From Thermoanaerobaculia bacterium (lineage in GTDB: Bacteria > Acidobacteriota > Thermoanaerobaculia > UBA5066 > Gp7-AA6), in contig JBBDKM010000029.1 in assembly GCA_040879385.1 (NCBI GenBank), positions 27,661 to 91,660 on the forward strand: 64,000 nt of DNA, in the 5' to 3' direction. The notes below the pieces were generated by a model that was not told the DNA's origin, made no database searches, and was given only the letters and a program-made list of their open reading frames with translations. The translations under genes and the position numbers were made by a program. Shown here in pieces: positions 28,969 through 56,586 of the stretch (its first letter is position 1; each line of letters opens with the position of its first letter).

Positions 28969-30765
28969 ATGAGCTTCCCGACCGACAGCGGCGGAAAAGA
29001 GCGGCCGGACGACGCGCGCACAGACGACACTCAGTCCACGCGCGCCCGGGTCAGCACGGGGCCCTTCTCCGACCCGGAGTTTCGCCGTTTGATCGGACAG
29101 TCGCCGGTCGGAACCTACGTGATCCAGGACGAGCGGTACCGCTACGCCAACCCGAAGCTCACCGCCCTTCTCGGCTACTCGGAGCAGGACCTCCTCGGCT
29201 TTTCCTCCATCACCTCTCTCGTGGCCCCCGAAGACCGGGCCGCGGTCCTCGCGCGGATCCAGCGAGCCCTCGCCGGCGTACCGTCCGACGGCCCGTACGG
29301 CTTCGGGATGATCCGGCGGGACGGGGAGCGGATCGAGGTGGAGGTCTACGAGTCCGCGGCGGAATCGGCGGGGCGGACCGCGATCGTCGGGACGCTCCTC
29401 GATGTCACCGAGCGCCGGCGTGCCGAGGCGCACAACGTGGACCGGGCGTTCGTCGACCCGCTGACGAAGCTCCCCAATCGGGTCCGCTTCATGGAAAGAC
29501 TGGAGCTCGAGCTGGCGCAGGCGCGGCGGCACGAGCGCCGGCTCGCGATCGTCTCGCTGAACCTCGACCGGTTCAAGTTCATCAACGATCACTTCGGACA
29601 TTCCGTGGCGGACCATCTGCTGCAGTCTCTGGCCCTGCGCCTCAAACGGGGAGTCCGGGAAGTGGACGTGGTCGCGCGCGTCGCCGGGGACGAGTTCCTC
29701 GTCCTGGTTCCCGACCTGCGCCGGAGCGCGGACATGGGCCGGTTCGCCCAGAAGCTGCTCTCGCTGACCGCCCGACCGTTCGAGTTCAACGGCCGCACGA
29801 TCGAGGTCACGTCCTCGATCGGCGTGGCGACGTACCCCGACGACGGCCAGGACGCCGACACGCTCCTGCGCAGCGCCGACGCCGCGATGGACCGGGCCAA
29901 GGAGCTCGGCAGCAACAACTTTCAGCTCTGCACGCCCGAGCTGACCGCCATGGCCTTCGAGCGGCTGGACCTGCAGAACGGCCTGCGGCTCGCCCTGGAC
30001 CGCGAGGAGCTCGTTCTGCACTACCAGCCGCTCGTGAGCCTGCACACGGGGAGGATCGTGGGTCTCGAGGCCCTCGTCCGCTGGCAGCACCCGCAGCGCG
30101 GGCTCGTCATGCCCGGAGCGTTCATTCCGGCGGCCGAAGAAACCGGGCTCATCCTGCCGCTCGGGGAGTGGGTCCTCGCCACCGCCTGCAAGCAGCTGAA
30201 GGCCTGGGACGAGACGGGGCTGGGCCTGCGGATGGCCGTCAACTTCTCGGCCCGCCAGTTCCGGGAGCGCGGCCTCGTCCAGACCGTGGAAAGAGCGGTT
30301 TCGGAGGCGGGGCTCGAGCCCCGGAACCTGGAGATCGAGATCACCGAGTCGATCGCGATGGAGGGCGCCGAGATCGTCGTCACGAACCTGAATCAGCTGC
30401 GCGCCATGGGCGTCGGGATCGCGATCGACGACTTCGGCACGGGCTACTCGTCGCTGAGCTACCTCAAGCGCTACCCGATCACCTCGCTGAAGATCGACCG
30501 CTCGTTCGTGTCGGATCTCCCGACCAATCCGGCGGACGCCGGCATCGTGCGGGCGATCGTGGCGCTGGCCCACGGTTCCAACCTGAGCGTCATCGGGGAA
30601 GGGGTGGAGACGAAGGAGCAGTTCCTCCGACTGCAGGAGTACGGCTGCGACGAGATGCAGGGCTACTGGGTCAGCCGGCCCCTGCCGGAGGAGGGCGTCA
30701 CGCAGCGCCTGACCGACGAGATCGCACTCTGGAAGCAGGGAGACCCGCGCACCCCTACGCCGTAG
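28969..30765 (+). CDS. PAS-GGDEF-EAL cyclic-di-GMP signalling protein
   Basis: PAS region, then the GGDEF domain (RVAGDEFLVL), then the EAL domain (EALVRWQHP, DDFGTGYSSLSYL, EGVET). Confidence 0.95.
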   Translation: MSFPTDSGGKERPDDARTDDTQSTRARVSTGPFSDPEFRRLIGQSPVGTYVIQDERYRYANPKLTALLGYSEQDLLGFSSITSLVAPEDRAAVLARIQRALAGVPSDGPYGFGMIRRDGERIEVEVYESAAESAGRTAIVGTLLDVTERRRAEAHNVDRAFVDPLTKLPNRVRFMERLELELAQARRHERRLAIVSLNLDRFKFINDHFGHSVADHLLQSLALRLKRGVREVDVVARVAGDEFLVLVPDLRRSADMGRFAQKLLSLTARPFEFNGRTIEVTSSIGVATYPDDGQDADTLLRSADAAMDRAKELGSNNFQLCTPELTAMAFERLDLQNGLRLALDREELVLHYQPLVSLHTGRIVGLEALVRWQHPQRGLVMPGAFIPAAEETGLILPLGEWVLATACKQLKAWDETGLGLRMAVNFSARQFRERGLVQTVERAVSEAGLEPRNLEIEITESIAMEGAEIVVTNLNQLRAMGVGIAIDDFGTGYSSLSYLKRYPITSLKIDRSFVSDLPTNPADAGIVRAIVALAHGSNLSVIGEGVETKEQFLRLQEYGCDEMQGYWVSRPLPEEGVTQRLTDEIALWKQGDPRTPTP

Positions 30766-31873
30766 CGAGCCCCGCCTTCAGGTCGGACGCGAGCAGCCGG
30801 TGGAACAGGTGCTCGCCCCCCTCGCGGCGCACCGAGAGCCGCCCCGCTCGGTAGGCGCGCGACCCGAGGCCCCGCTGGACCGAATCGCAAATCGCCAGGT
30901 CCTCGTCCTGCACCCGGTTGCCGACATCGATCGAGGCTTTGTTCTTCGCGATCGCCTCGGGTGTCGAGACGTCGGTGAAGTAGAAGTCGAAAATGACCTC
31001 GGCCTTGCCCGCGCCGAGCGGGCGGACGAGGTTGGTGTCCATGACCCCCTCGTACCAGTTGATCATGAAGTTCGGGTAGAGCCAGTAGTAGAGCGCCCGG
31101 TCGCCGCCGCGCACCGCCGCGACGTCGCCGTCGGCGTTCGAGTGGTCGATGGGGCTCCACTGCAGACACCAGTTCTGGCCGGTCTCGATCATGTACTGGC
31201 TGTAGTCGAGGACGGAGGAGAGGCTCTTGTGGAGATGCGGCACGTGATACCCGCCGTCGAGGTAGTTGTCGACGAACACCTTCCAGTTGCACTCGAAGGT
31301 CCAGCGCCGCCGCTCCACGAAGTGGAAACGGGCGAGGTCGAGCTTCGCAAACTGGCCGACGAGGGGCCCGAGCGACTCTTCGAGCGGCGGGCCGCCCGGC
31401 TCGAGCCGGACGAAGACGAACTTCTCCCAGCTCGCCGTCTCGACCGGCATCAATCCGCTCTTCGCCTTGTCGAAGCCGCACACGCCGGCGAAATCCGGCG
31501 TGCCCTTGAGCTCCCCGGCGAGCGAATACGTCCAGCCGTGGTAGGGGCAGCGCAGCATCGGGGCCTTCCCCTCCTCCTCCGTCATCACGGCCGCCGCGTG
31601 GTGCCGGCACACGTTGAAGAAGCCGCGCAGCGTCCCGTCCTCGCCGCGCACGACGACGATCGGCTCGCCGGCGAGGACAGTCGTGATGTACTGGCCGGGC
31701 TTCTCGAGCTGGTCGAGACGGCCGACCATCTGCCAGGTCCGCGAGAAGACGGTCCGACGCTCGAGCTGTGCGATCCGGTCGTCGACGTACCAGGGCGCCG
31801 GGATCGTCCAGGCCTCCTCGAGCGGGGCCCGCGAGTCGTAGGCGCCCAGGATCTCTTCGACCGACGGTTCCAT
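30755..31873 (-). CDS. Rieske [2Fe-2S] non-haem iron oxygenase alpha subunit (choline monooxygenase / GbcA / CntA-like class)
   Basis: Rieske motif CRHHAAAV...RCPYHGWTY. Mononuclear-iron region FVDNYLDGGYHVPHLH. RBS GGGAGG. No reductase or ferredoxin partner in the window. Confidence 0.9.
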   Translation of the reverse strand: MEPSVEEILGAYDSRAPLEEAWTIPAPWYVDDRIAQLERRTVFSRTWQMVGRLDQLEKPGQYITTVLAGEPIVVVRGEDGTLRGFFNVCRHHAAAVMTEEEGKAPMLRCPYHGWTYSLAGELKGTPDFAGVCGFDKAKSGLMPVETASWEKFVFVRLEPGGPPLEESLGPLVGQFAKLDLARFHFVERRRWTFECNWKVFVDNYLDGGYHVPHLHKSLSSVLDYSQYMIETGQNWCLQWSPIDHSNADGDVAAVRGGDRALYYWLYPNFMINWYEGVMDTNLVRPLGAGKAEVIFDFYFTDVSTPEAIAKNKASIDVGNRVQDEDLAICDSVQRGLGSRAYRAGRLSVRREGGEHLFHRLLASDLKAGLATA

Positions 31874-31904
31874 GAGTCCTCCCGATCGGGTTTCAGCGCG
31901 GCTG

Positions 31905-33110
31905 TCAGCGCACGGGCGTTGCGGTCTTCCTCGGAGGATTGAAGAACGGCAGCTTCACGACGGTCGCCGGAACGCGGTGGCGCACGGCTTCGACCGTGAC
32001 CTCCATCTCGAGGCGAGTCCCGACGGCGTTGGAGCCGCGGGCGACGGTCGCGAGCGCGATCATCTTCTTCAGCGTCGGAGACCAGGTCGTCGACGTCGCC
32101 TTCCCGACCTGCTCGCCCTCGCGGTAGACGGGCACGGAGACGCGGGAGGCCGCCGCCGGGATCTGCGGGGCCAGGTTCAGCCGTTCGTAGATCGCCTCGA
32201 CGGCGTTCCAGTCGAGCTCGAGGCCCACGATCTCGCGAGCCGGCCCCGTCTTCGCCTCCGCGCGGAGCGCGCCCTGGCCCACGAAGCGGCCCTTGTCCAG
32301 CGCGACGAGCCTCGCAAGCCCCATCTCGAAGGGCGTGTACTTCTGCGGCCCGATCAGGGCTTTCTTGGAGCTGTTGAAGTCCACGTCGATCAGGAGGAGG
32401 CCAGCCTCGATGCGCGAGACGTCGAGCGCCAGCATGCCGGCCGCGTGAACGTCGAAAGCCTTGCCCTTGCTCCAGAGCTCGTCCCACACCCTCACGGCGT
32501 CCTTCCACGGGATCCAGATCTCGTAGCCGAGGTCGCCCGTGTAGCCGGTCCGCGAGATGTCGACGGGGACCCCGGCGATCTTTCCGGAGGTCACCTTGAA
32601 GTACTTGAGGTTCTCGATGTCGGCCTCGGCGATCGCCTTCAGCATCCGCCCGGACGTCGGCCCCTGGAGGGCGACCGCCGCGACCTCCTCGGAGATCTCC
32701 GTGATCGCGACATCGAGGCCGAGCGCGTTCTGTTTGAACCAGCGCAGGCTCGGATCGGCCGCGGTCCAGCGGTACGTGTTCTCCGCCAGGCGTGCCACCG
32801 TGCCGTCGTCGATCACCTTGCCGTGCCCGTCGCACCAGGGCGTGTAGATGACCGATCCGACCGAGACCTTCCGGAGATCGCGCGTCACGATGCGGTCGAC
32901 CAGGCGCGTCGCGTCCTTGCCCGAGATCCGGTACTTGAAGAGCGGCGAGATGTCGATCAGCGCCGCGGCGTTGCGGATGGCATTGTACTCGTGCTCGTGG
33001 TGCGCCTCGTAGGCGGAGACCGCGTAGTAGCCCGACCACTCGCGAAAGTTCAGGCTCTCGCAGAGCGGAAACGTTCTCTCGTGTAAGGCGGTCCCGATCG
33101 GCACAGGCAA
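31905..33110 (-). CDS. aminomethyltransferase (GcvT) family protein, folate-dependent demethylase-like
   Basis: 401 aa: ...HEYNAIRNAAALIDISPLFKYRISGKDA..., GYTGDLGYEIWIP. TTG at 33110; an in-frame GTG at 33104 has better spacing to GAGG. Confidence 0.9.
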   Translation of the reverse strand: MPVPIGTALHERTFPLCESLNFREWSGYYAVSAYEAHHEHEYNAIRNAAALIDISPLFKYRISGKDATRLVDRIVTRDLRKVSVGSVIYTPWCDGHGKVIDDGTVARLAENTYRWTAADPSLRWFKQNALGLDVAITEISEEVAAVALQGPTSGRMLKAIAEADIENLKYFKVTSGKIAGVPVDISRTGYTGDLGYEIWIPWKDAVRVWDELWSKGKAFDVHAAGMLALDVSRIEAGLLLIDVDFNSSKKALIGPQKYTPFEMGLARLVALDKGRFVGQGALRAEAKTGPAREIVGLELDWNAVEAIYERLNLAPQIPAAASRVSVPVYREGEQVGKATSTTWSPTLKKMIALATVARGSNAVGTRLEMEVTVEAVRHRVPATVVKLPFFNPPRKTATPVR

Positions 33111-33172
33111 CCTCGCAGCTCGTATCCGGTCCGCGCGGCCCGCCGGAACGCGGAGTCACGTGGACCTTGTCG

Positions 33173-33204
33173 GAGCGCGCGATTATAAGTATGCTCGCGC
33201 GCTC
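33173..33204. promoter_or_regulatory. 10-bp perfect inverted repeat flanking an AT-rich core in the divergent promoter between the GcvT-like/Rieske operon and the PYROXD2-like genes (candidate operator)
   Basis: GAGCGCGCGA-ttataagtatgc-TCGCGCGCTC. The core reads TATAAT on the minus strand and TATAAG on the plus strand. Confidence 0.5.
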
Positions 33205-33258
33205 GCGGCAAGCGGGCGGCACGAAACCACGGGTCACAAACGAGGCGAACCGAGGCGA

Positions 33259-34851
33259 ATGAGCGCGAAGTACGACGTCGTCGTGATCGGAGGCGGGCAC
33301 AACGGCCTCATCCACGCCGCTTACCTCCAGAAGGCGGGCAAGAAAGTGCTCGTTCTCGAACGTCGCCACGTCCTAGGCGGCGCCGCGGTGACCGAAGAGG
33401 TCTTCCCCGGCTTCAAGTTCTCCGTCTGCTCGTACGTCGTCTCGCTCCTGCGGCCGGAGATCATCCGGGACCTGGAGCTCCCGCGGCACGGGCTGGAGAT
33501 CCTGCCGCTCGACGGCACCTTCACGCCGATGCTCAACGGCGACCACCTCTGGCGCGTCAACGACCACGCGAAGACGCGGCGCGAGATCGCGCGCCACTCG
33601 AAGCTCGACGCGGAGGCGTACGACGAGTACGGCAAGGCGATGGCGGACATGGGCCGCTTCGTCAAGCCGATCCTCTCCATGACGCCTCCCGACCCGACGA
33701 AGCTCGACTGGAAGGGCCTCCAGGACCTGCTCTTCCTCGGCAAGCGCTTCCGCGGCCTCTCGGGCGAGGACAAGTACAACCAGATTCAGCTCATGACGAT
33801 GTCGGCGGTCGACTTCCTCGACCAGTGGTTCGAGACCGACGTCCTCAAGGCCACGATGTCGGCCTCGGGCATCATCGGCACGTTTCTCGGCGTGCGCTCG
33901 CCGGGAACTGCCTACGTGCTCCTCCACCACTACATGGGCGAGATCGACGGCGCCTTCCGCTCCTGGGGCTTCGCCCGCGGCGGCACGGGCGCCATCTCCA
34001 ACGCCATCGCCGACGCGGCCCGCGAGGCGGGTGTCGAGATCCGGACGCAGACGCCGATCGCCCGCATCCAGGTCAAGGGCGGCAAGGCCGCGGGCGTCGT
34101 CCTCGAGAACGGCGAGGAGATCGACGCGCGGGTCGTCTCGTCGAGTGTGGACCCGCGGCTGACTTTCATGAAGATGGTCGGCGAGAAGGAGCTGCCCGGC
34201 GACTTCGTCGACGACATCAAGCGCTACAAGTTCCGCGGCTCCTCGGGAAAGGTGAATCTCGCGCTCGACGCGCTGCCGGACTTCAAGTCGATCCCGGGCG
34301 CCGGCGCGCACCTGCGGGGCGCGATCTCCATCTCGCCCTCGGTCGAGTACATGGAGCGCGCCTACGACGACGCCAAGTACGGCCGCTTCTCCCGCCGCCC
34401 CTACATCGACATCGTGATCCCGACCCTGACGGACCCGTCGCTCGCTCCGCCGGGCAAGCACGTCATGTCCTGCTTCGTGCAGTACGCGCCGTACAACCTG
34501 AAAGAGAGCGACTGGGACAAGGAGAAGGAGAACTTCGGCGACACCGTCGTCGACACGATCGCGGAGCATGCGCCGAACTTCAAGAGCATCATCAAGCACC
34601 GCCAGGTCGTCACCCCGCTCGACCTCGAGCGCGAGTGGGGGCTCTCCGAGGGGAATATCTTTCAGGGCGAGCTGACCCTCGAGCAGCTCTTCTTCCTGCG
34701 CCCGGCGCCGGGCTGGGCGCAGTACCGCACGCCGATCCGGAACCTCTACATGTGCGGCTCGGCCACCCACCCGGGCGGCGGCATCATGGGCGCCAACGGC
34801 AAGAACGCCGCCTTCAAGCTCCTCGAAGACTGGAAGCGCGGGAAGGTCTAG
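33259..34851 (+). CDS. FAD-dependent oxidoreductase, phytoene-desaturase (CrtI) superfamily, PYROXD2-like
   Basis: MSAKYDVVVIGGGHNGLIHAAYLQKAGKKVLVLERRHVLGGAAVTEE... (dinucleotide-binding fold); C-terminal LYMCGSATHPGGGIMG; 530 aa. Confidence 0.9.
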   Translation: MSAKYDVVVIGGGHNGLIHAAYLQKAGKKVLVLERRHVLGGAAVTEEVFPGFKFSVCSYVVSLLRPEIIRDLELPRHGLEILPLDGTFTPMLNGDHLWRVNDHAKTRREIARHSKLDAEAYDEYGKAMADMGRFVKPILSMTPPDPTKLDWKGLQDLLFLGKRFRGLSGEDKYNQIQLMTMSAVDFLDQWFETDVLKATMSASGIIGTFLGVRSPGTAYVLLHHYMGEIDGAFRSWGFARGGTGAISNAIADAAREAGVEIRTQTPIARIQVKGGKAAGVVLENGEEIDARVVSSSVDPRLTFMKMVGEKELPGDFVDDIKRYKFRGSSGKVNLALDALPDFKSIPGAGAHLRGAISISPSVEYMERAYDDAKYGRFSRRPYIDIVIPTLTDPSLAPPGKHVMSCFVQYAPYNLKESDWDKEKENFGDTVVDTIAEHAPNFKSIIKHRQVVTPLDLEREWGLSEGNIFQGELTLEQLFFLRPAPGWAQYRTPIRNLYMCGSATHPGGGIMGANGKNAAFKLLEDWKRGKV

Positions 34852-34858
34852 ACCTCGT

Positions 34859-36451
34859 ATGGCAGAGAAGCGCGACGTCGTCGTCATCGGCGCCGGCCCC
34901 AACGGCCTGACCGCGGCCGCCTACCTCGCCAAGGCGGGCTTCAGGCCGGTCGTCCTCGAGCGGCGCGACGTGGTCGGCGGGCTCGCCGTGACCGAAGAGT
35001 TCGCGCCGGGCTTCCGGGTCTCTTCGGTTCTCCACGCGGCCGGACCGTTCCTCCCCGCGATCGCGCGGGACCTGGACCTTACCCGGCACGGGCTCTCCCT
35101 CCTCCAGCCGGACGTGCGGGTCTTTGCGCCCGCGCCGGATGGACGGGCCATCCTGCTGTACGGCGACGCGGCGAAGACCGCCCGCGAGCTCGAGAAGACT
35201 TCTCCCCACGACGCGAAGGGCTACATCGCCTTTCACGAGAGCCTCGGCCGGATCGGCAAGGTGCTCCAGCCCCTCGTGACGATGACGCCGCCCTCGATCG
35301 ACGATCCTGGCCTGGGCGCGATCTGGGACCTCCTCGGGGTCGGCCGCCGGTTCCGGGCGCTCCCGCGCCGCGACGCCTTCCGGCTGCTGCGCTGGGGCCC
35401 CATGGCCGTCGCCGACCTCGTGGCCGAGTTCTTCGAGACGGAGCTGCTCCGGGCGGTCGTCGCCGCGCGCGGCATCTTCGGAGCTTTCGCGGGCCCCTGG
35501 TCCGCCGGCACGAGCCTCGGCGTGATCCTCCAGGCGGCGACCGACTCGAACGCCGCCGGACCGGCCACGTTCGTGCGGGGCGGAATGGGCGCGCTCACAC
35601 AGGCGCTCGCCACGGCGGCGCGGGGCTTCGGCGCGGAAATCCGCACGGGCGTAACCGTCGCGCGGATCGCTACCAAAGACGGCGCGGCCACGGGCGTCGT
35701 TCTCTCGACCGGCGAGGAAATCCCGGCGCGCGCCGTCGTCTCGAACGCCGACCCCAAGCGCACGCTCCTCGGCCTCGTCGATCCGATCGATCTCGATCCG
35801 GACTTCATCCAGAAGATCCGGAACTTCCGCGCGATGGGGGCCGTCGCCAAGGTGAACCTGGCCCTCTCGGGCCTCCCGGAGTTTCCGGCGGCGAAGGCGG
35901 TCGGCGCCGACGCGAAGAACGTCCTGTCGGGGCGCATCCACATCGGCCCGGACATCGACTACCTCGAGCGCGCCTACGACGCTGCCAAGTACGGCGACTT
36001 CTCGCCGCACCCCTACTGCGACGTCACGATCCCGACGATCACGGACCCCTCGCTCGCCCCCGCCGGCAAGCACGTCCTGTCGGTCGTCGCCCAGTTCGCT
36101 CCTTACAAGTTGAAGGGCGACTGGAAGGGCAGGCGGGAGGCTCTCGGCGACGCCGTCGTGGATGCCATAGCCGCCTACTCCCCGGGCCTCAAAGGACTCG
36201 TCACCGGCCGTCAGGTCCTGACGCCTCTCGATCTCGAGGAGACGTACGGCGCGACCGGCGGCCACATCTTCCACGGCGAGCCTGCCCTCGACCAGCTCTT
36301 CACGATGCGCCCGCTCCTCAACTGGGCCCAGTACCGCACCCCCGTCCGCGGCCTCTACCTCTGCGGCTCGGGCACGCACCCGGGCGGCGGGGTCACCGGC
36401 GCGCCGGGGTTCAACGCGAGCCGGGAGATCGCAAAGGACCTGAAACGCTGA
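34859..36451 (+). CDS. FAD-dependent oxidoreductase, phytoene-desaturase (CrtI) superfamily, paralogue of the preceding gene
   Basis: MAEKRDVVVIGAGPNGLTAAAYLAKAGFRPVVLERRDVVGGLAVTEE...; C-terminal LYLCGSGTHPGGGVTG. Also 530 aa and collinear with 33259..34851. Confidence 0.9.
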   Translation: MAEKRDVVVIGAGPNGLTAAAYLAKAGFRPVVLERRDVVGGLAVTEEFAPGFRVSSVLHAAGPFLPAIARDLDLTRHGLSLLQPDVRVFAPAPDGRAILLYGDAAKTARELEKTSPHDAKGYIAFHESLGRIGKVLQPLVTMTPPSIDDPGLGAIWDLLGVGRRFRALPRRDAFRLLRWGPMAVADLVAEFFETELLRAVVAARGIFGAFAGPWSAGTSLGVILQAATDSNAAGPATFVRGGMGALTQALATAARGFGAEIRTGVTVARIATKDGAATGVVLSTGEEIPARAVVSNADPKRTLLGLVDPIDLDPDFIQKIRNFRAMGAVAKVNLALSGLPEFPAAKAVGADAKNVLSGRIHIGPDIDYLERAYDAAKYGDFSPHPYCDVTIPTITDPSLAPAGKHVLSVVAQFAPYKLKGDWKGRREALGDAVVDAIAAYSPGLKGLVTGRQVLTPLDLEETYGATGGHIFHGEPALDQLFTMRPLLNWAQYRTPVRGLYLCGSGTHPGGGVTGAPGFNASREIAKDLKR

Positions 36452-36487: not shown

Positions 36488-38056
36488 TTACGGCGCGGCG
36501 ACGGTCCTCCAGTTTCCGCTGGCCTGGAGCTCGAGCCGCTTCTTCGCGCGCGCGTCGGCGATGAGCAGGTCGCGGAGTCTGCCCGTCTCGCGGAGGCGCT
36601 CGGCGCGCTTCCACATCCCGTACCCGCCTCCGCCGCCGGCGCGGTAGGAGTTCAGCGCGACCGTGAAGGTGTCCGTGTCGGCAATCGCGCGGCCGCCTCG
36701 GGACAGCGACACCACCCGCTGTCCCCTTTGCCGCCGCGGGTCGATCGTGTACTCGGCCCCCTCGAGCGTGTCGCAGCTGCGCAGGCGCTCGGTCGGGTCG
36801 GCAATGCATTCGGCCGAGCGTTCGAGGGCCGCGCGGACTTCCCGCCCGGTGGCCTTCAGGGTGACGAGGCTGTTCTCGTAGGGGTAGAACTGCCAGATCT
36901 GCCGGACCGTCAGCGGACCGGCCGGCCAGTCGGTGAACTGGACCGGCAGGAGCGTGCAGAACGAGAGCTCGGCGGCCCCTTCGCGAAGCTGCACGGCGTG
37001 GAGCCAGTCGAGGAGCGCCGAGTCTTCGAATCGAACGCGGCGCGCCGAGACCGGAGAGGCCAGGTCGGCGACTTTCTCGGCCAGAACGCGCATCGCCGCC
37101 CCGTGCTCGACGGCGACGGAGGCCACGATCTCCGGATCCGGCAGGATCCTCTTCATCGGGAGGTTCCGGCCCCGAACGTCGGCCAGCTTCCACGCCTCGC
37201 CGTTCTTGACGAGACTGAGGTCGTAGCGCGTCAGCGTGTTTCCCCAGCGGCCGGGTTGCGAGACCCACGCGCCTCCGAGCCGCTGCGGGTTGACGATCGT
37301 GTGCGCGTGACCGGTCAACAGCAGGTCGATCCCGGGGACCTGGGTCGCCAGGGCATAGGCGCGGTTCTCTCCGGCGCCGCCCGAGTCCTTACCGGTCGCC
37401 GGGTCGCGCTCGAACCCCTGGTGCGTGATGACGACGACCAGGTCGCACCGCTCCTGTTCGCGCAGGACCGGCACCCAGCGGCGCGCGATCGCCACGGGCT
37501 CGGTGAAGCGCAGTTTCTCGAGCAGCGCCGGGCTGATCCAGTTTCCGACCTGGTTCGTGACGAGACCGAGGATGCCGACCCGCAGGCCGGCGATCTCGCG
37601 CACCACGTAGGGCGGAAACGGCGGGTCGCCGCTCGGGCCGAGCGTATTGGCGGAAAGCCAGGCGAACTTCGCCGCCTTCCGCGATTCCTCGAGGCGCCTT
37701 TTCCCGAAGTCGAACTCGTGATTCCCGATCGCCATCGCGTCGTAGCCGACGAGGTTCATCGCGCGCACGATCGGATCGCTGCCGTCCCCGGCGCGGCCCT
37801 CCAAAGCCAGGGTCTGTTCCGGCGCTCCCTGGATGGTGTCGCCCGAATCGAGCAGGAGTACGGCGTTGCCTTCGGCGCGAATCGCCTTCACGGCCGCCGC
37901 CACCCGCGCCAGCCCCTCGCCGAGGTCCCGATCGGCCAGCGCGTCGTGGGGATGGACGCGGCCGTGCAGGTCGGAGGTGTGGAGGATCGTCAGGGTGACG
38001 CCGGAGGCGAAATGCGCGCCCGCGACGAGAAGGAACGCGATGGCGAGGCGCCGCAT
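36488..38056 (-). CDS. bifunctional metallophosphatase/5'-nucleotidase (UshA-like), secreted
   Basis: Starts MRRLAIAFLLVAGAHFASG. Metallophosphatase motifs ILHTSDLHG, DSGDTIQG, GNHEFDFG, ITHQG, GHAH, followed by the 5'-nucleotidase C-terminal domain. Confidence 0.9.
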   Translation of the reverse strand: MRRLAIAFLLVAGAHFASGVTLTILHTSDLHGRVHPHDALADRDLGEGLARVAAAVKAIRAEGNAVLLLDSGDTIQGAPEQTLALEGRAGDGSDPIVRAMNLVGYDAMAIGNHEFDFGKRRLEESRKAAKFAWLSANTLGPSGDPPFPPYVVREIAGLRVGILGLVTNQVGNWISPALLEKLRFTEPVAIARRWVPVLREQERCDLVVVITHQGFERDPATGKDSGGAGENRAYALATQVPGIDLLLTGHAHTIVNPQRLGGAWVSQPGRWGNTLTRYDLSLVKNGEAWKLADVRGRNLPMKRILPDPEIVASVAVEHGAAMRVLAEKVADLASPVSARRVRFEDSALLDWLHAVQLREGAAELSFCTLLPVQFTDWPAGPLTVRQIWQFYPYENSLVTLKATGREVRAALERSAECIADPTERLRSCDTLEGAEYTIDPRRQRGQRVVSLSRGGRAIADTDTFTVALNSYRAGGGGGYGMWKRAERLRETGRLRDLLIADARAKKRLELQASGNWRTVAAP

Positions 38057-38063
38057 GAACCTG

Positions 38064-38079
38064 ATCCTACACATAGAAT
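38064..38079. promoter_or_regulatory. back-to-back -10 hexamers for divergent leaderless transcripts (5'-nucleotidase and nth)
   Basis: The intergenic region is 31 nt. TAGGAT (minus, 38069..38064) lies 7 nt from the ATG at 38056. TAGAAT (plus, 38074..38079) lies 8 nt from the ATG at 38088. Neither gene has a Shine-Dalgarno sequence. Confidence 0.45.
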
Positions 38080-38087
38080 GCCGGGCG

Positions 38088-38756
38088 ATGGCGAGGAGGC
38101 CGAAGGAGACCTTCGAGGACAAGAAGCGCCGGGCCACCGCCGTCTTCCGACGCTTGAAGGCGGCCTACCCCGACGCAAAATGCGCGCTCGACCACAGGAG
38201 CCCCCTCGAGCTCCTGGTCGCCACGATCCTCTCGGCGCAGTGCACCGACGTGCGGGTCAACATGGTCACGCCGTCCCTCTTCGCGAAGTACCGCACGGCG
38301 GCCGACTACGCGCGCTCGCCGCGGGGGGAGCTCGAGCGGGAGGTCCGCTCGACGGGATTCTTCAATTCCAAGGCGAAGAGCCTTCGGGCGGCGGGCGCCG
38401 CCATCGCGGCCGGGCACGGCGGGCAGGTACCGGACACGATGGAAGAGCTCGTCGCGCTCCCGGGGGTCGGGCGCAAGACCGCCAACGTGGTCCTCGGCAA
38501 CGCGTTCGGGAAGGACGAGGGCTTCGTCGTGGACACGCACGTGGGACGCCTGGCGCGGCGCCTCGGCTTGACGCGCGAGGTCGATCCCGTGAAAATCGAG
38601 CGGGACTTGAACGCCCTGGTCAAGAGGGGACGCCGCACGCTCGGCGCCCACCTGCTGATCGCGCACGGCCGGCAGATCTGTGTCGCCCGAAAGCCCCAGT
38701 GCTGGGAGTGCCCGGTCGAGAGGCTCTGCCCCAAAGTCGGCGTGCAGATCCCGTGA
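38088..38756 (+). CDS. nth: endonuclease III
   Basis: HhH-GPD (LVALPGVGRKTANVVLG, D at VVDTHV) and FeS cluster loop CVARKPQCWECPVERLC. The ATG lies 8 nt after TAGAAT. Confidence 0.95.
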   Translation: MARRPKETFEDKKRRATAVFRRLKAAYPDAKCALDHRSPLELLVATILSAQCTDVRVNMVTPSLFAKYRTAADYARSPRGELEREVRSTGFFNSKAKSLRAAGAAIAAGHGGQVPDTMEELVALPGVGRKTANVVLGNAFGKDEGFVVDTHVGRLARRLGLTREVDPVKIERDLNALVKRGRRTLGAHLLIAHGRQICVARKPQCWECPVERLCPKVGVQIP

Positions 38757-40693: not shown

Positions 40694-42112
40694 ATGACCG
40701 ACCACTTCCGCGGAAGACTCGAGGTCTTCGGCCTTGCGGACCTTCTCCAATGGATGGAGCTGAACCGCCGGTCGGGGCGGTTGACCGTGACGCGCGGCCA
40801 CGACCGGCGGACCCTGGACTGGAAGGACGGCGAGATCGTCTACGTCTCGGGATCGCTGCCCCGCCACCGCCTCGGCGTCCACCTGCTCCGCAGCGGCGCC
40901 CTTTCCGCCGCGACCCTGTACGAGCTGCTCGCCCGCAACATGACGACCCAGGAGAACCTGACGCGGCTGATCCTCGAGATGGGGCACGACACGCTCGACG
41001 GCCTGTCGCTGCGCGTCGAGGAGCTGGCGCGCAAGCTTCTCTTCGAGATCTTCGAGTGGCGGGAGGCCAACTTCGAGTACGACCCGACGTACCGGGTGAC
41101 GCCGATCCTCCGCATCGGGTTGATGCTGCGCGGACAGGCGCTCGCATTTCAGGGAGTCAAGCAGCTCGACGACACGCACCGCCTCTCCCGCCGCGAGCGC
41201 CGCGAAACTTGGGAGGCGGCCGACGCCTGGGTCCTCCCCTTCCTTCCGGAGGGGATCGAGGAGCACTTCTGGGAAGCCCTCGAAAAGATCGAGGCGCCGC
41301 TCGACCCGCCCGAGGGGCGCGGCCACGCCATGCGGTTTCACGAGTTCGCGCGGCGCCTGCGCGAGCGCCTGATCAAGAACTACCTGATGCGGCCGGTGCA
41401 TCACGACACGGCCGCGCTTCTGGTGGAGCTTCTCAAGAAGACCCCGCTGGACCCACAGTCGATCGTCCCGGTGGCGGCCCTGGACCAATACCTGACGCTC
41501 GACCTGCTGATCCTCGCCAACTCGCTTTCCGTCGACCGCGAGAACTCCGTCGGCACCGCCCCGGAGGCCCTCGACCGCATCGGGCCGCGGGCCGCGACGG
41601 TCCTGATCGACCGGCTCTCGTCCGCCGATTTCCCCGCCCTGCCGCGCAACGACCCGGCCCCGCGCGCCGTGCGTCGGGCGAGCCTCGCCGCGGCGATCGC
41701 CGCCGGACGCTTCGCCGAGCGCTACGGGATCTCTCGCGAGCGCGGGTACACGCTGGGCCTCCTCCACTGCATCGGCTACTCGGATCTCTTCGAGATCGTG
41801 CGCGAGATGAACCTGCCCTCCGGGCCTTTCCGCGGCGCGGTTCTGGAGACCTACCGGCCGGCCGTAGGCCGTTCCCGCGCCGAGATCTGGGGACTCCCGC
41901 GGGACTTCGAGGCGGTCCTCTCCGACGACGGGACCGACCCGAGCGCGGCGGCCGCGGTCGTCCGCAAGGCGCGCTCGGCGATCCCCGCGTGCGCGATCGG
42001 GAGCCTGCCGGTCGAGGGAGCCGACGACTTGGAGTCCGACGAGCTGACGGGCGAGCTGAACATGCTTTTCGAGTACCTCGGCCTCCAGCCGGTCGGCGCC
42101 GCACGGGAATAA
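40694..42112 (+). CDS. DUF4388 (PATAN-like) domain protein with C-terminal HDOD-like domain
   Basis: N-terminus GRLEVFGLADLLQWMELNRRSGRLTV is the DUF4388 signature. The C-terminal half has an HDOD-like layout (…LGLLHCIGY…). Confidence 0.75.
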   Translation: MTDHFRGRLEVFGLADLLQWMELNRRSGRLTVTRGHDRRTLDWKDGEIVYVSGSLPRHRLGVHLLRSGALSAATLYELLARNMTTQENLTRLILEMGHDTLDGLSLRVEELARKLLFEIFEWREANFEYDPTYRVTPILRIGLMLRGQALAFQGVKQLDDTHRLSRRERRETWEAADAWVLPFLPEGIEEHFWEALEKIEAPLDPPEGRGHAMRFHEFARRLRERLIKNYLMRPVHHDTAALLVELLKKTPLDPQSIVPVAALDQYLTLDLLILANSLSVDRENSVGTAPEALDRIGPRAATVLIDRLSSADFPALPRNDPAPRAVRRASLAAAIAAGRFAERYGISRERGYTLGLLHCIGYSDLFEIVREMNLPSGPFRGAVLETYRPAVGRSRAEIWGLPRDFEAVLSDDGTDPSAAAAVVRKARSAIPACAIGSLPVEGADDLESDELTGELNMLFEYLGLQPVGAARE

Positions 42113-45817: not shown

Positions 45818-46210
45818 CTAGCGGCGTTCCGTCTTGACCACGGAGTACCCCCGGCCCGGGATCTTGGCCAGGGCGAGGGTCTGGGACCCGCCTTTCCGTG
45901 TTCCCAGCTCCTCCCGCAGCACCCCGAGAATCTTCTGGACCTCGCCGTGCATCGTCTCCATCCGCTGTTTCATGTGCAGGATGACCTCGACGCCGGCGAG
46001 GTTGACGCCCAGGTGCCGGGTCAACGTCAGGATGATCTCCAGTCGCTCGATCGTGTCGGTGTCGTAAAGACGCGTATTTCCCCCGGTCCGGGCCGGCCGG
46101 AGGAGCCCTTCGCGCTCGTACATGCGGAGGGTCTGGGGGTGGATCCCGTAGCGCTCCGCGATCGCGCCAATCCGGAAAACCCCGGACCGCTCCCTCTCCC
46201 GGCTCTTCAT
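45818..46210 (-). CDS. hspR: MerR-family heat-shock transcriptional repressor HspR-like
   Basis: HTH FRIGAIAERYGIHPQTLRMYEREGLLRP. Last gene of the dnaK-hsp20 cluster. Start overlaps the hsp20 stop (ATGA). Confidence 0.85.
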   Translation of the reverse strand: MKSRERERSGVFRIGAIAERYGIHPQTLRMYEREGLLRPARTGGNTRLYDTDTIERLEIILTLTRHLGVNLAGVEVILHMKQRMETMHGEVQKILGVLREELGTRKGGSQTLALAKIPGRGYSVVKTERR

Positions 46211-46659
46211 CGAGCCTTCCTCGGCTCGACTGAGATCGGCTGGGCGCGGTCCGACTTGGGGGCCACGACTCGAAGCACTCCAGCGCGCAGCGTCGCCTTG
46301 ATCAACGCCGCATCGAGCGAGGCCGGGATCGGAAACTCCCGTGAGAAGGAGCCGTAGATCCGCTCCATCCGCACGAAGTGCCGCGGCTCCGCTCCGGTCC
46401 AGGCCTTGCGGAGCCCGGCGATCCGCAGCTTACCGTCGAGGGCCTCGAGCCGCACGTCGTCGAGCCGCACCCCGGGGAGCTCGATGTTCAGGATGATCTC
46501 CTCGGGCGTCTCGTACACGTCCGCCGCCGGAGACCAGAGGGCCGCGTCCAGACCCTCGTCGGGAAACTCGGTGCGGTGGATCGTCTCTTCGAACAGGCGA
46601 TTGACCTTTTCCTGGATGGCGAAAAGGTCCTGAAGCGAATTCCAGCGAAAGACGGTCAT
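46207..46659 (-). CDS. Hsp20/alpha-crystallin family small heat-shock protein
   Basis: Alpha-crystallin domain ([19 protein letters not shown]..., GVLRVVAPK). Confidence 0.95.
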
Positions 46660-46731
46660 GGAGATGCCGTCAACAGTCTACAGTTGGGCGCCCCTTTTTT
46701 TTTACCGAAGCGCCGAAACCGCCGCCGCCGC

Positions 46732-46756
46732 GCTGTCAACTGCTGGCTGTCAACTG
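46732..46756. repeat. direct repeat GCTGTCAACTG x2 (14-nt period) immediately after the dnaK stop
   Basis: GCTGTCAACTG-ctg-GCTGTCAACTG. On the minus strand each copy reads CAGTTGACAGC. A related AGTTGACAGT contains the dnaK -35 at 48734..48743. Confidence 0.8.
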
Positions 46757-46761
46757 TCGAC

Positions 46762-48675
<1,914 letters not shown>

Positions 48676-48787: not shown

Positions 48788-50056
48788 CTACTCGACGACC
48801 AGAACACTCGGCCGGTCGGGTAGCTGCACCGGCCGTGAGGTTGCCGGACGGAGCTCTGAAACGGGCGCGAGACTCCGCTCGAGCGACAGATCCAGGTCGA
48901 TCTGGCCGCGGGCGTTGCGCCCGTAGAGGCCGAATTTGCCGTCCTCCGCCCGCAGAATGTAGCGGTAGAAGCGTCCGTACGGGTCCCGCAGCGCATCCTC
49001 CTCGAGGATACCCGCCACCACCAGGTCTTCGAGGCTCTGCGGATAACGCCCGCTCGAGTCGTAGAAGACGCGCACGGCCCGCTCGATCGCCACCGCACGG
49101 TTCAAGGAGATCGCCTTGCGGAACTCGGCGATCTCGAGAACCTCGCCGGGCGGCCGAAGGAGGAGATTGGCGGGATTGCGCGGGATCACGTAGATCGAGA
49201 CCGCGGCCAGCACGAGGAGCGCCGCCCAGAGCCCGAGCGCGCGTCCCGGCGGGGCGTGCGGAGCGGCGGGAGCGAGAGCCCGCGGCCCCGGACCGGGAGG
49301 CTCCTCCTCGATTCGACCGGGCTCGATCAGGTGCCGCCCGATCAGGTCCGCGGTGCCCTTCAGGACTTCGAAGTCGGAGAGGAAGGCGCGTTCCATGATG
49401 TCGCCGACGGAGCGCTTCCCGTCGATCCACCGCCACGTCTCGGCTTCGGACTTGGTGACCGACAGCGTCCCCTCGGGCGGGTTTTTCTCGCCGACGGTGA
49501 GGTTCAGGGTCTCGACACCGGGCGCTCGGCGGTAGACCGTCTCGAGCGATCCGACCTTCTTCTCGAAGAGTGGCCACTCGTCGACCATCTGCGCGGCTTC
49601 CATCAGGATGGTTTCGGTGGAAACGGGGGCCATGTGGTCCGCGTCGTAGTCGACCATGCCCTCCTGGCTGAACCGGAATCGGCCGTCCGGCCAGCGAAAC
49701 GCCGAGTAAACGATCCGCGCGATCTGCAGGCGCAGGGCCTGGTGCAGCTCCTGCGGATCGACCAGCCGCTCCCGCACGAGGAGGAATCCCATGCGCTGCT
49801 GGGTCTCCTTCTGGGTCGCCAGGATGCCGTCGAGCTGCTCCTGCGTCACGTAGCCCGCCCGGATCAAGAGGTTGCCCAGCCGATTCTCCAGCCGGCGCTC
49901 GGCCGACTCGGCGGCGATGACTTTGCCGCCGAGGAAGGAGATCGTCACGGTGTCGTCCTCGCCCTCGACGATGAGGACACCCGTTTTCCGCTGAAGCCCG
50001 AGCATCTGGAAGATGTCGGTCAGCGAGAAGACCTTGAGGGTTCCTTCAAGACCCAC
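48788..50056 (-). CDS. DUF4388 domain protein with central TM helix and C-terminal GspG/pseudopilin-like globular domain
   Basis: N-terminus GLEGTLKVFSLTDIFQMLGLQRKTGVLIV (DUF4388). TM helix ALGLWAALLVLAAVSIYVI. The C-terminal FYDSSGRYPQSLEDLVVAGILEEDALRDPYGRFYRY resembles the T2SS protein G core. GTG start. Confidence 0.75.
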   Translation of the reverse strand: MGLEGTLKVFSLTDIFQMLGLQRKTGVLIVEGEDDTVTISFLGGKVIAAESAERRLENRLGNLLIRAGYVTQEQLDGILATQKETQQRMGFLLVRERLVDPQELHQALRLQIARIVYSAFRWPDGRFRFSQEGMVDYDADHMAPVSTETILMEAAQMVDEWPLFEKKVGSLETVYRRAPGVETLNLTVGEKNPPEGTLSVTKSEAETWRWIDGKRSVGDIMERAFLSDFEVLKGTADLIGRHLIEPGRIEEEPPGPGPRALAPAAPHAPPGRALGLWAALLVLAAVSIYVIPRNPANLLLRPPGEVLEIAEFRKAISLNRAVAIERAVRVFYDSSGRYPQSLEDLVVAGILEEDALRDPYGRFYRYILRAEDGKFGLYGRNARGQIDLDLSLERSLAPVSELRPATSRPVQLPDRPSVLVVE

Positions 50057-55437: not shown

Positions 55438-56586
55438 CTAGCGGAGCCAGGCCACCGGGTCGCTGGCCTTCTGACGGTCCCGCACCTCAAAGTACAGGCC
55501 CGGCTCATCGCGCCCCGGCCCGAATCCGGCCAGGCCGATCTCCGTGCCCACGGACACGGGCACTCCCGGCCGGACTGCGACGCCCTGAAGCCAGGCATAG
55601 AGCGTCAGCATCCCGTCTCCGTGATCCAGGATCACGAGGTTTCCGTACTCGGCCAGCCACTGCGCGTAGATCGTCTTTCCCGCGTAGACGGCGCGCACGG
55701 GCGTTCCCAGCGGGACCGCCACCGCGACACCGTTGGAGACGGTCCAGGTGTCGAACTTCGGGTGGCGGTGACGGCCGAAGGTCTCGACGATCGTGCCGCG
55801 GGCGGGCCAGTCGAGCACGCCCTTCCAGGGACGGATCCCGCCGGCCGCCGCCGGCTCGTCCCCCGCCGACTGGCGCGAGAGAGTCTCGAGCAGCCTCTCC
55901 AGGCGCGAGGCCTTGTCGGTCAACCGCGAGACCTCGCGCCGCCGCGACGCGGCTTCCCGGCGCTCGAGCGAGAGCAGCTTCTCGCGCTCGGTCTTGAGCG
56001 AGGCGACCCGCTGCTCCTCCTGGCGGCTCACGAGATAGAGCCTGTCGATCTCGGCCTTGAGCGCCTGCTCGCGGGCGAGGTCCCGCTGGAGGCGCGCCTC
56101 CGCCTCGCGGTAGCCCCGCAGCAGCTTCCCGTCCCGCCGCGCCAGGCTGTCGAGGCGTTCGATCGAGTCGAGGAAGGCCGGCAGATCCCTCGCCTCGAGC
56201 AGGATCCGGAAGTAGCCGAACCGCCCGAAGCGATGGAGCAGCCGCGCCCGCGCCGAGAGGGCCTGCCGGAAGCGCGCGGCCGCCGCCGAGGCCGCGGCGC
56301 GCTCCTCCGACACGGCGGCGAGCCGCCGCCCGAACTCCTCGCGCGTCGCGGAGACGAGCTCGCCCTCGCGCGTGGCGAGCTCGAGCCGCAGGTCGAGGCG
56401 CTGCAGCTCCTCGGCGAGTGTGGCTTCCTTCTTTTCGCTCTCCGCGAGCTTCGTCTTCAGAGAGGCGATGCGGCTCTTCAGGCGATCCAGGTCCGCCTGG
56501 CGGTCCGAGTCGCCGGGAGGGACCGGGTCCTGACCGAGAAGCGGAAGAGCGAAAAGAAGGACCACCGCAGCACGCCGCAGCCTCAC
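55438..56586 (-). CDS. M23/LytM-domain murein hydrolase activator (EnvC-like) with N-terminal coiled coil
   Basis: VRLRRAAVVLLFALPLLG signal, long coiled coil, C-terminal LytM domain (GVAVAVPLGTPVRAVYAGKTIYAQWLAEYGNLVILDHGDGMLTLYAWL). GTG start overlaps the upstream stop (GTGA). Confidence 0.85.
   Translation of the reverse strand: MRLRRAAVVLLFALPLLGQDPVPPGDSDRQADLDRLKSRIASLKTKLAESEKKEATLAEELQRLDLRLELATREGELVSATREEFGRRLAAVSEERAAASAAAARFRQALSARARLLHRFGRFGYFRILLEARDLPAFLDSIERLDSLARRDGKLLRGYREAEARLQRDLAREQALKAEIDRLYLVSRQEEQRVASLKTEREKLLSLERREAASRRREVSRLTDKASRLERLLETLSRQSAGDEPAAAGGIRPWKGVLDWPARGTIVETFGRHRHPKFDTWTVSNGVAVAVPLGTPVRAVYAGKTIYAQWLAEYGNLVILDHGDGMLTLYAWLQGVAVRPGVPVSVGTEIGLAGFGPGRDEPGLYFEVRDRQKASDPVAWLR

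Follow-up and report, generated by a model that had tools for sequence, protein, structure and literature searches.

The 64-kb window analysed here, a stretch of 64,000 nucleotides from a Thermoanaerobaculia bacterium of the Acidobacteriota, contains at positions 30755-36451 a cluster of four genes that encode a Rieske oxygenase, a GcvT-like protein and two paralogous flavoproteins, Fl1 and Fl2. Its open reading frames (ORFs) and Pfam families match the four-gene content that a first-pass annotation, made from the letters alone, had assigned to this interval. The arrangement agrees as well, with the Rieske and GcvT-like genes both on the minus strand and the two flavoproteins, each of 530 amino acids, diverging from them. 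Along the window, the features are:

30755-31873, minus strand: Rieske oxygenase, 372 amino acids; Pfam PF00355 and PF00848 (Rieske, Ring_hydroxyl_A); group V (quaternary-ammonium) type
31905-33110, minus strand: GcvT-like protein, 401 amino acids from a TTG start; Pfam PF01571 and PF08669 (GCV_T, GCV_T_C)
33111-33258, no strand: divergent control region, the 148-bp spacer between the GcvT-like gene and Fl1
33259-34851, plus strand: Fl1, PYROXD2-family flavoprotein that binds flavin adenine dinucleotide (FAD), the 'A' subunit; 530 amino acids; Pfam Amino_oxidase and NAD_binding_8
34859-36451, plus strand: Fl2, PYROXD2-family paralogue, the 'B' subunit; 530 amino acids; Pfam Amino_oxidase and Rossmann FAD motifs, as in Fl1; starts 7 nt past the Fl1 stop codon

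All four ORFs carry the coding signature of this 69% GC genome, with 92-94% GC at third codon positions. A public metagenome-assembled genome (MAG) contig, GCA_964520415.1, encodes an identical Fl1, and the gene calls agree except at the start of the GcvT-like gene, which the public record places two codons later (33104), giving 399 instead of 401 amino acids. The ORF of Fl1 opens at 33160, and the public record uses the ATG at 33259. The closest relatives of the locus are found in Thermoanaerobaculia MAGs.

Judged by identity, signature motifs and trees, Fl1 and Fl2 are members of the PYROXD2 family, and neither is an orthologue of PYROXD2 itself. The two proteins are 47% identical to each other. 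Fl1 aligns with mouse PYROXD2 (P0224) end to end at 43% identity (432 bits, E 1e-150) and Fl2 at 38% (318 bits); these comparisons use the retrieved mouse protein, and a human sequence served only as bait. Genuine CrtI from Pantoea and Thermus yields a match along roughly half of the length, at 24-28% identity and about 90 bits. Among curated profiles CrtO scores best, along the full length but at less than one third of its cut-off (Fl1 310 and Fl2 286 vs 1000), and crtI_fam is also missed (136 and 146 vs 238). Mouse PYROXD2 is likewise sub-threshold for both profiles (crtI_fam 117, CrtO 276). At a threshold of E < 1e-30, the PYROXD2-like family comprises 3134 representatives. Its best PDB match by sequence is CrtI at 77 bits, and the PDB sequence search found no solved structure for any PYROXD2-family member.

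Motif comparison gives the same picture. Fl1 matches both the N-terminal PYROXD2 signature, GxGHNGL...ERRHVxGGAAVTEE..PGFKFS, and the C-terminal one, CGSGxHPGGGVMGA, and the N-terminal motif quoted in the first-pass annotation does occur in real PYROXD2 sequences. In Fl2 the signatures are degenerate (GAGPNGL, RRDVVGGLAVTEEFAPGFRVS, CGSGTHPGGGVTGA), with the GxGxxG FAD motif and the C-terminal GSGxHPGGG retained in both paralogues. Fl1 and Fl2 thus share with eukaryotic PYROXD2 full-length homology, N- and C-terminal signatures, the sub-threshold carotenoid pattern and a place in one tree family; they differ in forming an A/B pair, whereas the eukaryotic protein is the product of a single gene.

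Neighbour-joining trees with bootstrap, which are distance-based and in which a few replicates had undefined outgroup distances, place CrtI as a distant outgroup in all replicates. They group acidobacterial Fl1, the first genes of alphaproteobacterial pairs and actinobacterial relatives in an 'A' clade (98%), and they separate acidobacterial Fl2 and the alphaproteobacterial 'B' subunits into distinct, more divergent clades. Eukaryotic PYROXD2 forms its own clade (98%) and joins the A side in a group that excludes Fl2 (94-98%). The clade sister to PYROXD2 is not Fl1 but a single-copy bacterial one (87%). The earlier label 'PYROXD2 subfamily' therefore holds at the level of the family, on identity, signatures and trees, but fails at the level of orthology, where the sister clade consists of other bacteria. 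A check for grouping with carotenoid desaturases separates both proteins from CrtI in every replicate, with the curated cut-offs missed. With CrtI, CrtD and CrtO the pair has in common the overall fold, the FAD-binding motifs and CrtO as top curated profile; it differs in its partial, low-identity matches, in missing the cut-offs widely and in the absence of a carotenoid gene context at module loci. A carotenoid function for Fl1 and Fl2 was accordingly rejected on cut-offs, identity, trees and gene context.

The gene neighbourhood is conserved far beyond this bacterium. A scan of species-representative genomes returns 80 loci (L001-L080), all of them from Acidobacteriota and drawn from Thermoanaerobaculia, Blastocatellia/Pyrinomonadaceae, Vicinamibacterales, Terriglobia and Polarisedimenticolia; 53 of the 80 are well flanked, with at least 6 kb on both sides. 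In 74 of the 80 loci Fl2 lies directly 3' of Fl1; the others are cut by contig ends or frameshifts. The GcvT-like gene adjoins Fl1 in 69 loci and is present in 48 of the 53 well-flanked ones, as a rule in divergent orientation at a distance of no more than 400 bp. A group V Rieske gene occurs in 28 of the well-flanked loci, 18 with the window type and 10 with a second type (motif NYSECLHCP) that replaces it in Vicinamibacterales and Terriglobia; across all 80 loci, orthologues of the window type adjoin the module in 29. The flavoproteins have their tightest partner in the GcvT-like gene; the Rieske gene, present in about half of the loci, is accessory.

Across the five Acidobacteriota classes in these 80 loci, Fl1 keeps 80-92% amino acid identity, which places it among the most conserved Acidobacteriota proteins encountered in this analysis. 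Its partners are less conserved in the same loci (Fl2 53-81%, GcvT-like protein 67-88%, Rieske oxygenase 61-88%). Such constraint on Fl1 is unusual for a catabolic enzyme. Further genes recur beside the module: an APC-family permease in about half of the acidobacterial loci, a threonine-aldolase-like gene in 19 loci, mostly of Pyrinomonadaceae, and PurU directly after Fl2 in 15 Terriglobia loci. An MTHFR-like gene is present in none of the Fl loci. The outer flanks, a GGDEF-EAL gene and a 5'-nucleotidase gene, are common to the closest relatives only and differ between classes, so it is the module, and not the region, that is conserved.

Outside Acidobacteriota, the best A/B matches in a plasmid collection come from Rhizobium sp. 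SL42, Shinella zoogloeoides ATCC 19623, Fuscovulum ytuae and Parasedimentitalea marina. On these four alphaproteobacterial replicons a TetR gene is followed by A, B and an 'aminomethyltransferase family protein' with overlapping stop and start codons, together with a polyamine-type ATP-binding cassette (ABC) transporter, a class III aminotransferase and one or two Rieske alpha subunits. Fuscovulum arranges them as a single operon in the order aminotransferase-A-B-GcvT-Rieske-Rieske-polyamine-type ABC transporter. The best plasmid matches to the GcvT-like protein of the window are the very copies that stand beside A-B pairs. In an Actinomycetota MAG, a GcvT gene and an A-B pair lie next to a phosphodiesterase and an ABC transporter. 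Two actinobacterial-type loci (L096:1272-8776 and L097:5028-8925) have a GcvT-like gene flanked by a type I phosphodiesterase of 635-649 amino acids, and L096 also carries an ABC transporter of SBP_bac_1/8 type. It is a speculative suggestion that the actinobacterial substrate is released from a phosphodiester, for example a phosphocholine-type head group.

A metagenome scan seeded with eukaryotic PYROXD2 sequences adds 36 A-clade loci of 35-72% GC. Among about 30 that are informative, GcvT adjoins the A-clade gene in 24, several of them co-directional GcvT-A-B operons, and GcvT and A/B are the only recurrent genes. The A-B-GcvT set is thus strongly conserved in at least three phyla (Acidobacteriota, Alphaproteobacteria, Actinomycetota) and in further metagenome lineages, which bears out the neighbourhood conservation that the first-pass annotation had left to be checked. 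One gene set kept in varied order and orientation across phyla is a classical signature of a functional unit. The other neighbours (APC permeases, ABC transporters, aminotransferases, threonine-aldolase-like proteins, phosphodiesterase) appear consistent with an amine or amino-acid-like compound, and naming the substrate from them was abandoned, their variety being too great.

Two further observations concern the flavoproteins in other arrangements. An apparent A-B fusion of 821 amino acids (P0391, L098:9001-11466) comes from the same ENA assembly series as L097, where the GcvT-like and Fl2 genes are fragmented; as a sign of an Fl1-Fl2 complex it was discounted, being a probable frameshift artefact. 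A Shinella sumterensis plasmid (L089:4032-13170) carries a single-copy PYROXD2-like gene whose product is 44% identical to Fl1, in the operon order enoyl-CoA hydratase, acyl-CoA ligase, 3-hydroxyacyl-CoA dehydrogenase, PYROXD2-like gene, gcvT. A BKACE (3-keto-5-aminohexanoate-cleavage) gene lies nearby, and by its annotated families the gene set resembles carnitine or gamma-butyrobetaine-type catabolism.

The GcvT-like protein, the most constant partner, misses the equivalog and subfamily cut-offs for GcvT (TIGR00528 166.6 vs 235.85; NF001567 227.5 vs 300). A role as bona fide glycine-cleavage GcvT was rejected on these scores and on the absence of gcvH and gcvP from the 64-kb window. Its best characterised relative is the C-terminal tetrahydrofolate (THF) domain of the trimethylamine N-oxide (TMAO) demethylase Tdm (9q5a), at 179 bits. 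T-proteins follow (1woo and 1yx2, 153-154 bits), then the folate modules of dimethylglycine oxidase (DMGO, 113), SoxA (99) and dimethylglycine dehydrogenase (DMGDH, 88); DmdA scores 90 bits and LigM 46. A 2026 cryo-EM study of Tdm found that its C-terminal domain binds THF and turns released formaldehyde into methylene-THF (PMC13619132). The study names four THF contacts; R480, F582 and K782 are conserved in kind in the GcvT-like protein, and F672 is replaced by Arg.

These relationships lead us to propose that the GcvT-like protein is a stand-alone THF-binding protein that would accept a one-carbon unit. Its kinship with Tdm, known from Paracoccus and Methylocella, is confined to the folate domain: the match covers Tdm residues 411-783 only, the NCBIfam Tdm model scores 289 vs a cut-off of 1100, and the N-terminal DUF1989 metal-dependent demethylase domain of Tdm is absent. 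In place of that domain, the source of formaldehyde here would be the flavoprotein pair. The closest plasmid GcvT-like protein outside the module (278 bits) is encoded near position 1.21 Mb of pSymA of S. meliloti 1021 (L090:11986-20669), in an unannotated stretch with MTHFR-like, PurU, SHMT, class V aminotransferase, 2-hydroxyacid dehydrogenase and VanA-like genes. This stretch, in which no PYROXD2-like gene occurs, looks like a separate cluster for THF-dependent demethylation and the serine cycle.

The Rieske oxygenase of the window resembles oxygenases that act on quaternary ammonium compounds. Among solved structures it is closest to carnitine monooxygenase CntA (6y8j; 157 bits, full length), whereas aromatic ring dioxygenases match the Rieske half only. 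The Rieske motif CRH...CPYH and the iron motif His210/His215 (HX4H) align to CntA, and the Asp iron ligand is placed solely by an aligned ED motif. Group V Rieske oxygenases act on quaternary ammonium compounds, and subgroup Va (CntA, choline monooxygenase, OxyBAC) has an aromatic residue 203 that makes a pi-cation contact to the ammonium group (PMC7948474). In the window protein, Tyr204 of the motif VDNY204LD206GGYH aligns with CntA Tyr203 at this position, and Asp206 is the bridging carboxylate. These features support membership of the quaternary-ammonium (group V) class, in line with the class named at first pass, that of choline, glycine-betaine and carnitine monooxygenases.

Within group V (CntA/YeaW, choline monooxygenase, OxyBAC, GbcA/BmoA, Stc2), the window enzyme shares the CXH...CXXH motif, the 2-His iron site and, with CntA, similarity along the full length. 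It differs from CntA in having Asp in place of the bridging Glu205 and in lacking cysteine 206, and it has no close characterised orthologue: identity to YeaW and other group V enzymes is about 30-32%, and GbcA, the sole curated equivalog that matches, scores 125 bits vs a cut-off of 670. A CntB/GbcB-type reductase, typical beside the oxygenase, is found neither in the 64-kb window nor as a recurrent gene in related loci; an adjacent reductase and a bridging Glu are typical of group V without strictly defining it. Pfam scans of essentially all coding ORFs in the window detect no ferredoxin or FNR-type reductase gene, in agreement with the earlier remark that a reductase partner is missing there. 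The best non-acidobacterial match to this oxygenase, on a Gemmatirosa plasmid (40% identity), was rejected as a module member for want of an Fl or GcvT neighbour.

PYROXD2 itself is a human mitochondrial protein, since 2011 a robust metabolite-QTL (quantitative trait locus) gene for trimethylamine and dimethylamine, and biallelic variants in it occur in a severe infantile mitochondrial disorder. The literature searched still describes it as a disulphide reductase. Neither a biochemical activity for PYROXD2 nor a paper on the present operon was found in that literature, from which most subscription journals lay outside coverage; the first-pass statement that its function awaits assignment is consistent with a protein that is uncharacterised there. 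The human link to methylamines that was named at first pass is borne out: trimethylamine in urine and dimethylamine in plasma are higher where PYROXD2 expression is lower (PMC3169529). The locus also associates with N2-acetyl,N6,N6-dimethyllysine (PMC13352909).

Proteins of the single-copy bacterial sister clade of eukaryotic PYROXD2 are 44-55% identical to the mouse protein, and their genes have no GcvT neighbour. Among 31 contigs, most of them short, 5 have a group V Rieske gene directly beside the sister-clade gene, and a sixth has one at a distance of 4 kb; the Rieske motif is NYSECYHC (for example L101:3169-4194, L103:201-1268 and L108:1941-2999, among metagenome loci L100-L123 and others). 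A second kind of partner appears in one protein, P0305 (Logan SRR23031613, contig L099:1437-3887), where a glutathione-dependent formaldehyde-activating (GFA) domain of 62 bits precedes a PYROXD2 orthologue in one uninterrupted ORF. The PYROXD2 part is 47% identical to the mouse protein (501 bits), and the contig carries eukaryote-type genes (VMP1, RNA cyclase). The fusion may be taken as a hint, a pointer to formaldehyde. No extra Pfam domain was found in a flatworm 'PYROXD2' model of 1632 amino acids.

With moderate confidence, we propose that the module carries out folate-coupled oxidative N-demethylation of a methylated amine and channels the carbon into folate metabolism. The gene content, family membership, synteny between phyla and operon structure are established here, and each catalytic step is inferred. 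The Rieske oxygenase would act first, on a quaternary ammonium group, which is not oxidisable by a flavin. By analogy with its family, it would hydroxylate a carbon next to the nitrogen of a quaternary ammonium compound to yield a tertiary amine, with release of an aldehyde as with CntA or through a related oxidation, and its electrons would come from a reductase encoded elsewhere. Fl1 and Fl2, probably as an A/B complex in which the conserved Fl1 would be the main catalytic subunit, would then oxidise, with FAD, the C-N bond to the N-methyl group of the tertiary and/or secondary amine, giving an iminium or carbinolamine whose carbon has the oxidation level of formaldehyde.

In the third step, the GcvT-like protein would bind THF and trap the one-carbon unit as 5,10-methylene-THF, as the homologous domains of Tdm, dimethylglycine oxidase/dehydrogenase and sarcosine oxidase do. 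FolD and PurU would finally oxidise the carbon, PurU being encoded beside the module in Terriglobia, and the permease would import the substrate; in alphaproteobacteria, the aminotransferase would complete the pathway together with the transporters. The PurU neighbour and the missing MTHFR-like gene fit methylene-THF rather than methyl-THF as the product.

The proposed logic has precedents. Dimethylglycine oxidase/dehydrogenase, SoxBDAG and N-methylglutamate dehydrogenase each pair an N-methyl-oxidising flavoprotein with a co-encoded GcvT-fold module that traps methylene-THF, and a flavoprotein is likewise co-encoded with a GcvT-fold module in the acidobacterial, alphaproteobacterial, actinobacterial and metagenome loci. 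The modules of DMGO, SoxA and DMGDH match the GcvT-like protein over its full length, and the association with PurU is as in sox and dmg clusters. The differences are equally clear. The flavoprotein here has the PYROXD2/CrtI fold (Pfam Amino_oxidase), unlike the DAO-family flavoproteins of DMGO and Sox systems; there are two paralogous flavoproteins; and the folate module is a separate polypeptide of 400 amino acids instead of a fused domain. For the present module the activity is a predicted one.

More tentatively, as a possibility that we hold short of probable, the whole PYROXD2 family including the human protein may consist of FAD enzymes that demethylate tertiary or secondary N-methyl amines and release formaldehyde. 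The partners envisaged in this extension, put forward with the same reserve, would be the GcvT-like protein in bacteria, the fused GFA domain in a protist and a group V Rieske oxygenase that would make the tertiary amine available from a quaternary one. A demethylase activity throughout the family would explain the human trimethylamine, dimethylamine and dimethyllysine QTLs.

Several observations weigh against the demethylase proposal. Most single-copy PYROXD2-like subfamilies lack a GcvT-like neighbour and are found among acyl-CoA or amine-catabolic genes instead; more than one chemistry may therefore occur in the family. The AlphaFold2 model of Fl1 (predicted local distance difference test score 77.5, predicted template-modelling score 0.82) has a fold common to CrtD/CrtI and to the flavin amine oxidases NicA2, MAO and putrescine oxidase, and its Foldseek neighbours do not favour C-N oxidation, CrtD standing at a template-modelling score of 0.74 and the amine oxidases at 0.52-0.59. 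The modelled fold allows either C-N or C-C chemistry, and structure comparison was dropped as a way to split the two, as Foldseek returns both carotenoid desaturases and amine oxidases. In the pSymA cluster an MTHFR-like gene is present and a flavoprotein gene absent, as is characteristic of a demethylase that transfers the methyl group directly. A Rieske gene is lacking in about half of the loci, and a reductase is not nearby. The synteny counts from Acidobacteriota lack phylogenetic independence, the GFA fusion is represented by one sequence (P0305 is a singleton cluster, and the metagenome scan gave no relatives), and no biochemical data were found for any PYROXD2-family member.

Some of these points feed an alternative that we consider unlikely, in which Fl1 and Fl2 carry out C-C chemistry in the manner of CrtI, by desaturation, saturation, isomerisation or ketolation, on a substrate other than a carotenoid (for example an acyl-CoA, an omega-amino acid or the side chain of an amino acid), and the GcvT-like protein is an independent methyltransferase of DmdA/LigM type that shares the pathway but is not coupled to them. 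The ranking of CrtD and CrtI as top structural neighbours agrees with such chemistry, as do the full-length CrtO profile match and the single-copy relatives in operons with CoA ligase, enoyl-CoA hydratase and 3-hydroxyacyl-CoA dehydrogenase. On the methyltransferase side, the pSymA GcvT-like gene stands beside an MTHFR-like gene, as expected for a demethylase that forms methyl-THF, but the Fl loci themselves contain PurU in 15 cases and MTHFR-like in none, and the GcvT-like protein is nearer to Tdm (179) and DMGO (113) than to DmdA (90) or LigM (46). An uncoupled arrangement also sits poorly with the stop/start overlaps of A, B and GcvT in alphaproteobacteria, which suggest a complex. The GFA fusion points to formaldehyde, and the human metabolite associations concern N-methylated amines.

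Much less probable is a role for Fl1 and Fl2 as the missing electron-transfer partner of the Rieske oxygenase, passing on reducing equivalents from NAD(P)H or from the next intermediate. Such a role would fill the place of the classical reductase and ferredoxin, which are neither in the window nor recurrent in related loci, and it could draw on the dinucleotide-binding motifs in both paralogues and on the PYROXD2-like genes beside group V Rieske genes in two separate clades. In about half of the A-B-GcvT loci, however, there is no Rieske gene to serve, GcvT being the more constant partner, and Pfam detects no iron-sulphur or ferredoxin-like domain in Fl1 or Fl2. No CrtI-fold protein is known to act as an oxygenase reductase. 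The plain annotated functions, a carotenoid enzyme and glycine cleavage, are effectively excluded on present comparisons despite the public labels 'phytoene dehydrogenase-like protein' and 'aminomethyltransferase' and the rank of CrtO among NCBIfam profiles: all scores for CrtO, crtI_fam and GcvT fall far under the curated cut-offs, crt, gcvH and gcvP genes are not in the window, CrtI is a distant outgroup at 24-28% identity, and chance cannot account for a triad that is conserved across phyla and in different gene orders.

The 148-bp spacer from which the module is divergently transcribed includes an imperfect palindrome (33173-33204), its two 15-nt arms being 87% complementary. A promoter-like site on the plus strand consists of TTGTCG (33167-33172), a 17-nt spacer and TATGCT (33190-33195), and one on the minus strand of TTGCCG (33211-33206) and TATAAT (33187-33182). 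Comparison of the spacer across 22 related loci shows that the core TTGTC[AG]-N17-TATGCT / ATTATAAG is kept in loci of Thermoanaerobaculia and Pyrinomonadaceae, two acidobacterial classes, and that the G+C-rich palindrome arms are retained in the nearest relatives only. The simplest reading of these letters is two overlapping divergent sigma-70-like promoters with interlocking -10 boxes. A conserved operator was rejected, for only the A+T-rich centre is conserved, which equals the two overlapping -10 boxes, and the arms are lineage-specific; an operator role for the palindrome is possible, without backing from conservation. Of the 'shared palindromic promoter' described at first pass, the palindrome and the divergent promoter region are present, but the region is mainly two overlapping promoters with poorly conserved arms.

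The flanks are unrelated to the module, with a PAS-GGDEF-EAL gene on the Rieske side and a 5'-nucleotidase gene on the Fl2 side. The PAS-GGDEF-EAL gene (28969-30765, plus strand) converges with the Rieske gene, and their 3' ends overlap by 11 nt; this overlap is found only in the closest relatives, L001, L002 and L022. In the rest of the window, Pfam detects none of gcvH, gcvP and the carotenoid genes crtB, crtE and crtY. A phosphate/polyphosphate block lies just upstream of the cluster at 6925-28868. It includes a PHO4-type transporter, PhoU_div, a PhoR-like kinase, a PhoB-like regulator, PstB/A/C/S-like genes and a phosphate-selective porin O/P, as well as polyphosphate kinase Ppk1, a PHP-domain protein, PhoU, Ppx/GppA and a CHAD protein. 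Downstream are the 5'-nucleotidase (36488-38137) and a type I phosphodiesterase (56583-58688). Two genes encode an N-terminal DUF4388 (PatA_N) domain, at 40694-42112 (also with HDOD) and 48788-50056, near a DnaK-Hsp20-MerR heat-shock block at 45818-48675.

The logic that joins a demethylase to folate is known; this module differs in its flavoprotein family, in having an A/B pair and in its free-standing folate protein. Its bacterial context offers PYROXD2 a reaction class, candidate substrates, a likely protein partner and cultured organisms, and it makes the function of a human disease and metabolite-QTL gene directly testable. If the proposed demethylation is correct, the module would represent a new enzyme family in the cycling of methylated amines and one-carbon units in soils and oceans, and thousands of 'phytoene dehydrogenase-like' annotations would be corrected. 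Should it extend to the whole family, PYROXD2 proteins would form a third class of folate-coupled N-demethylase, besides the DAO-family enzymes and Tdm.

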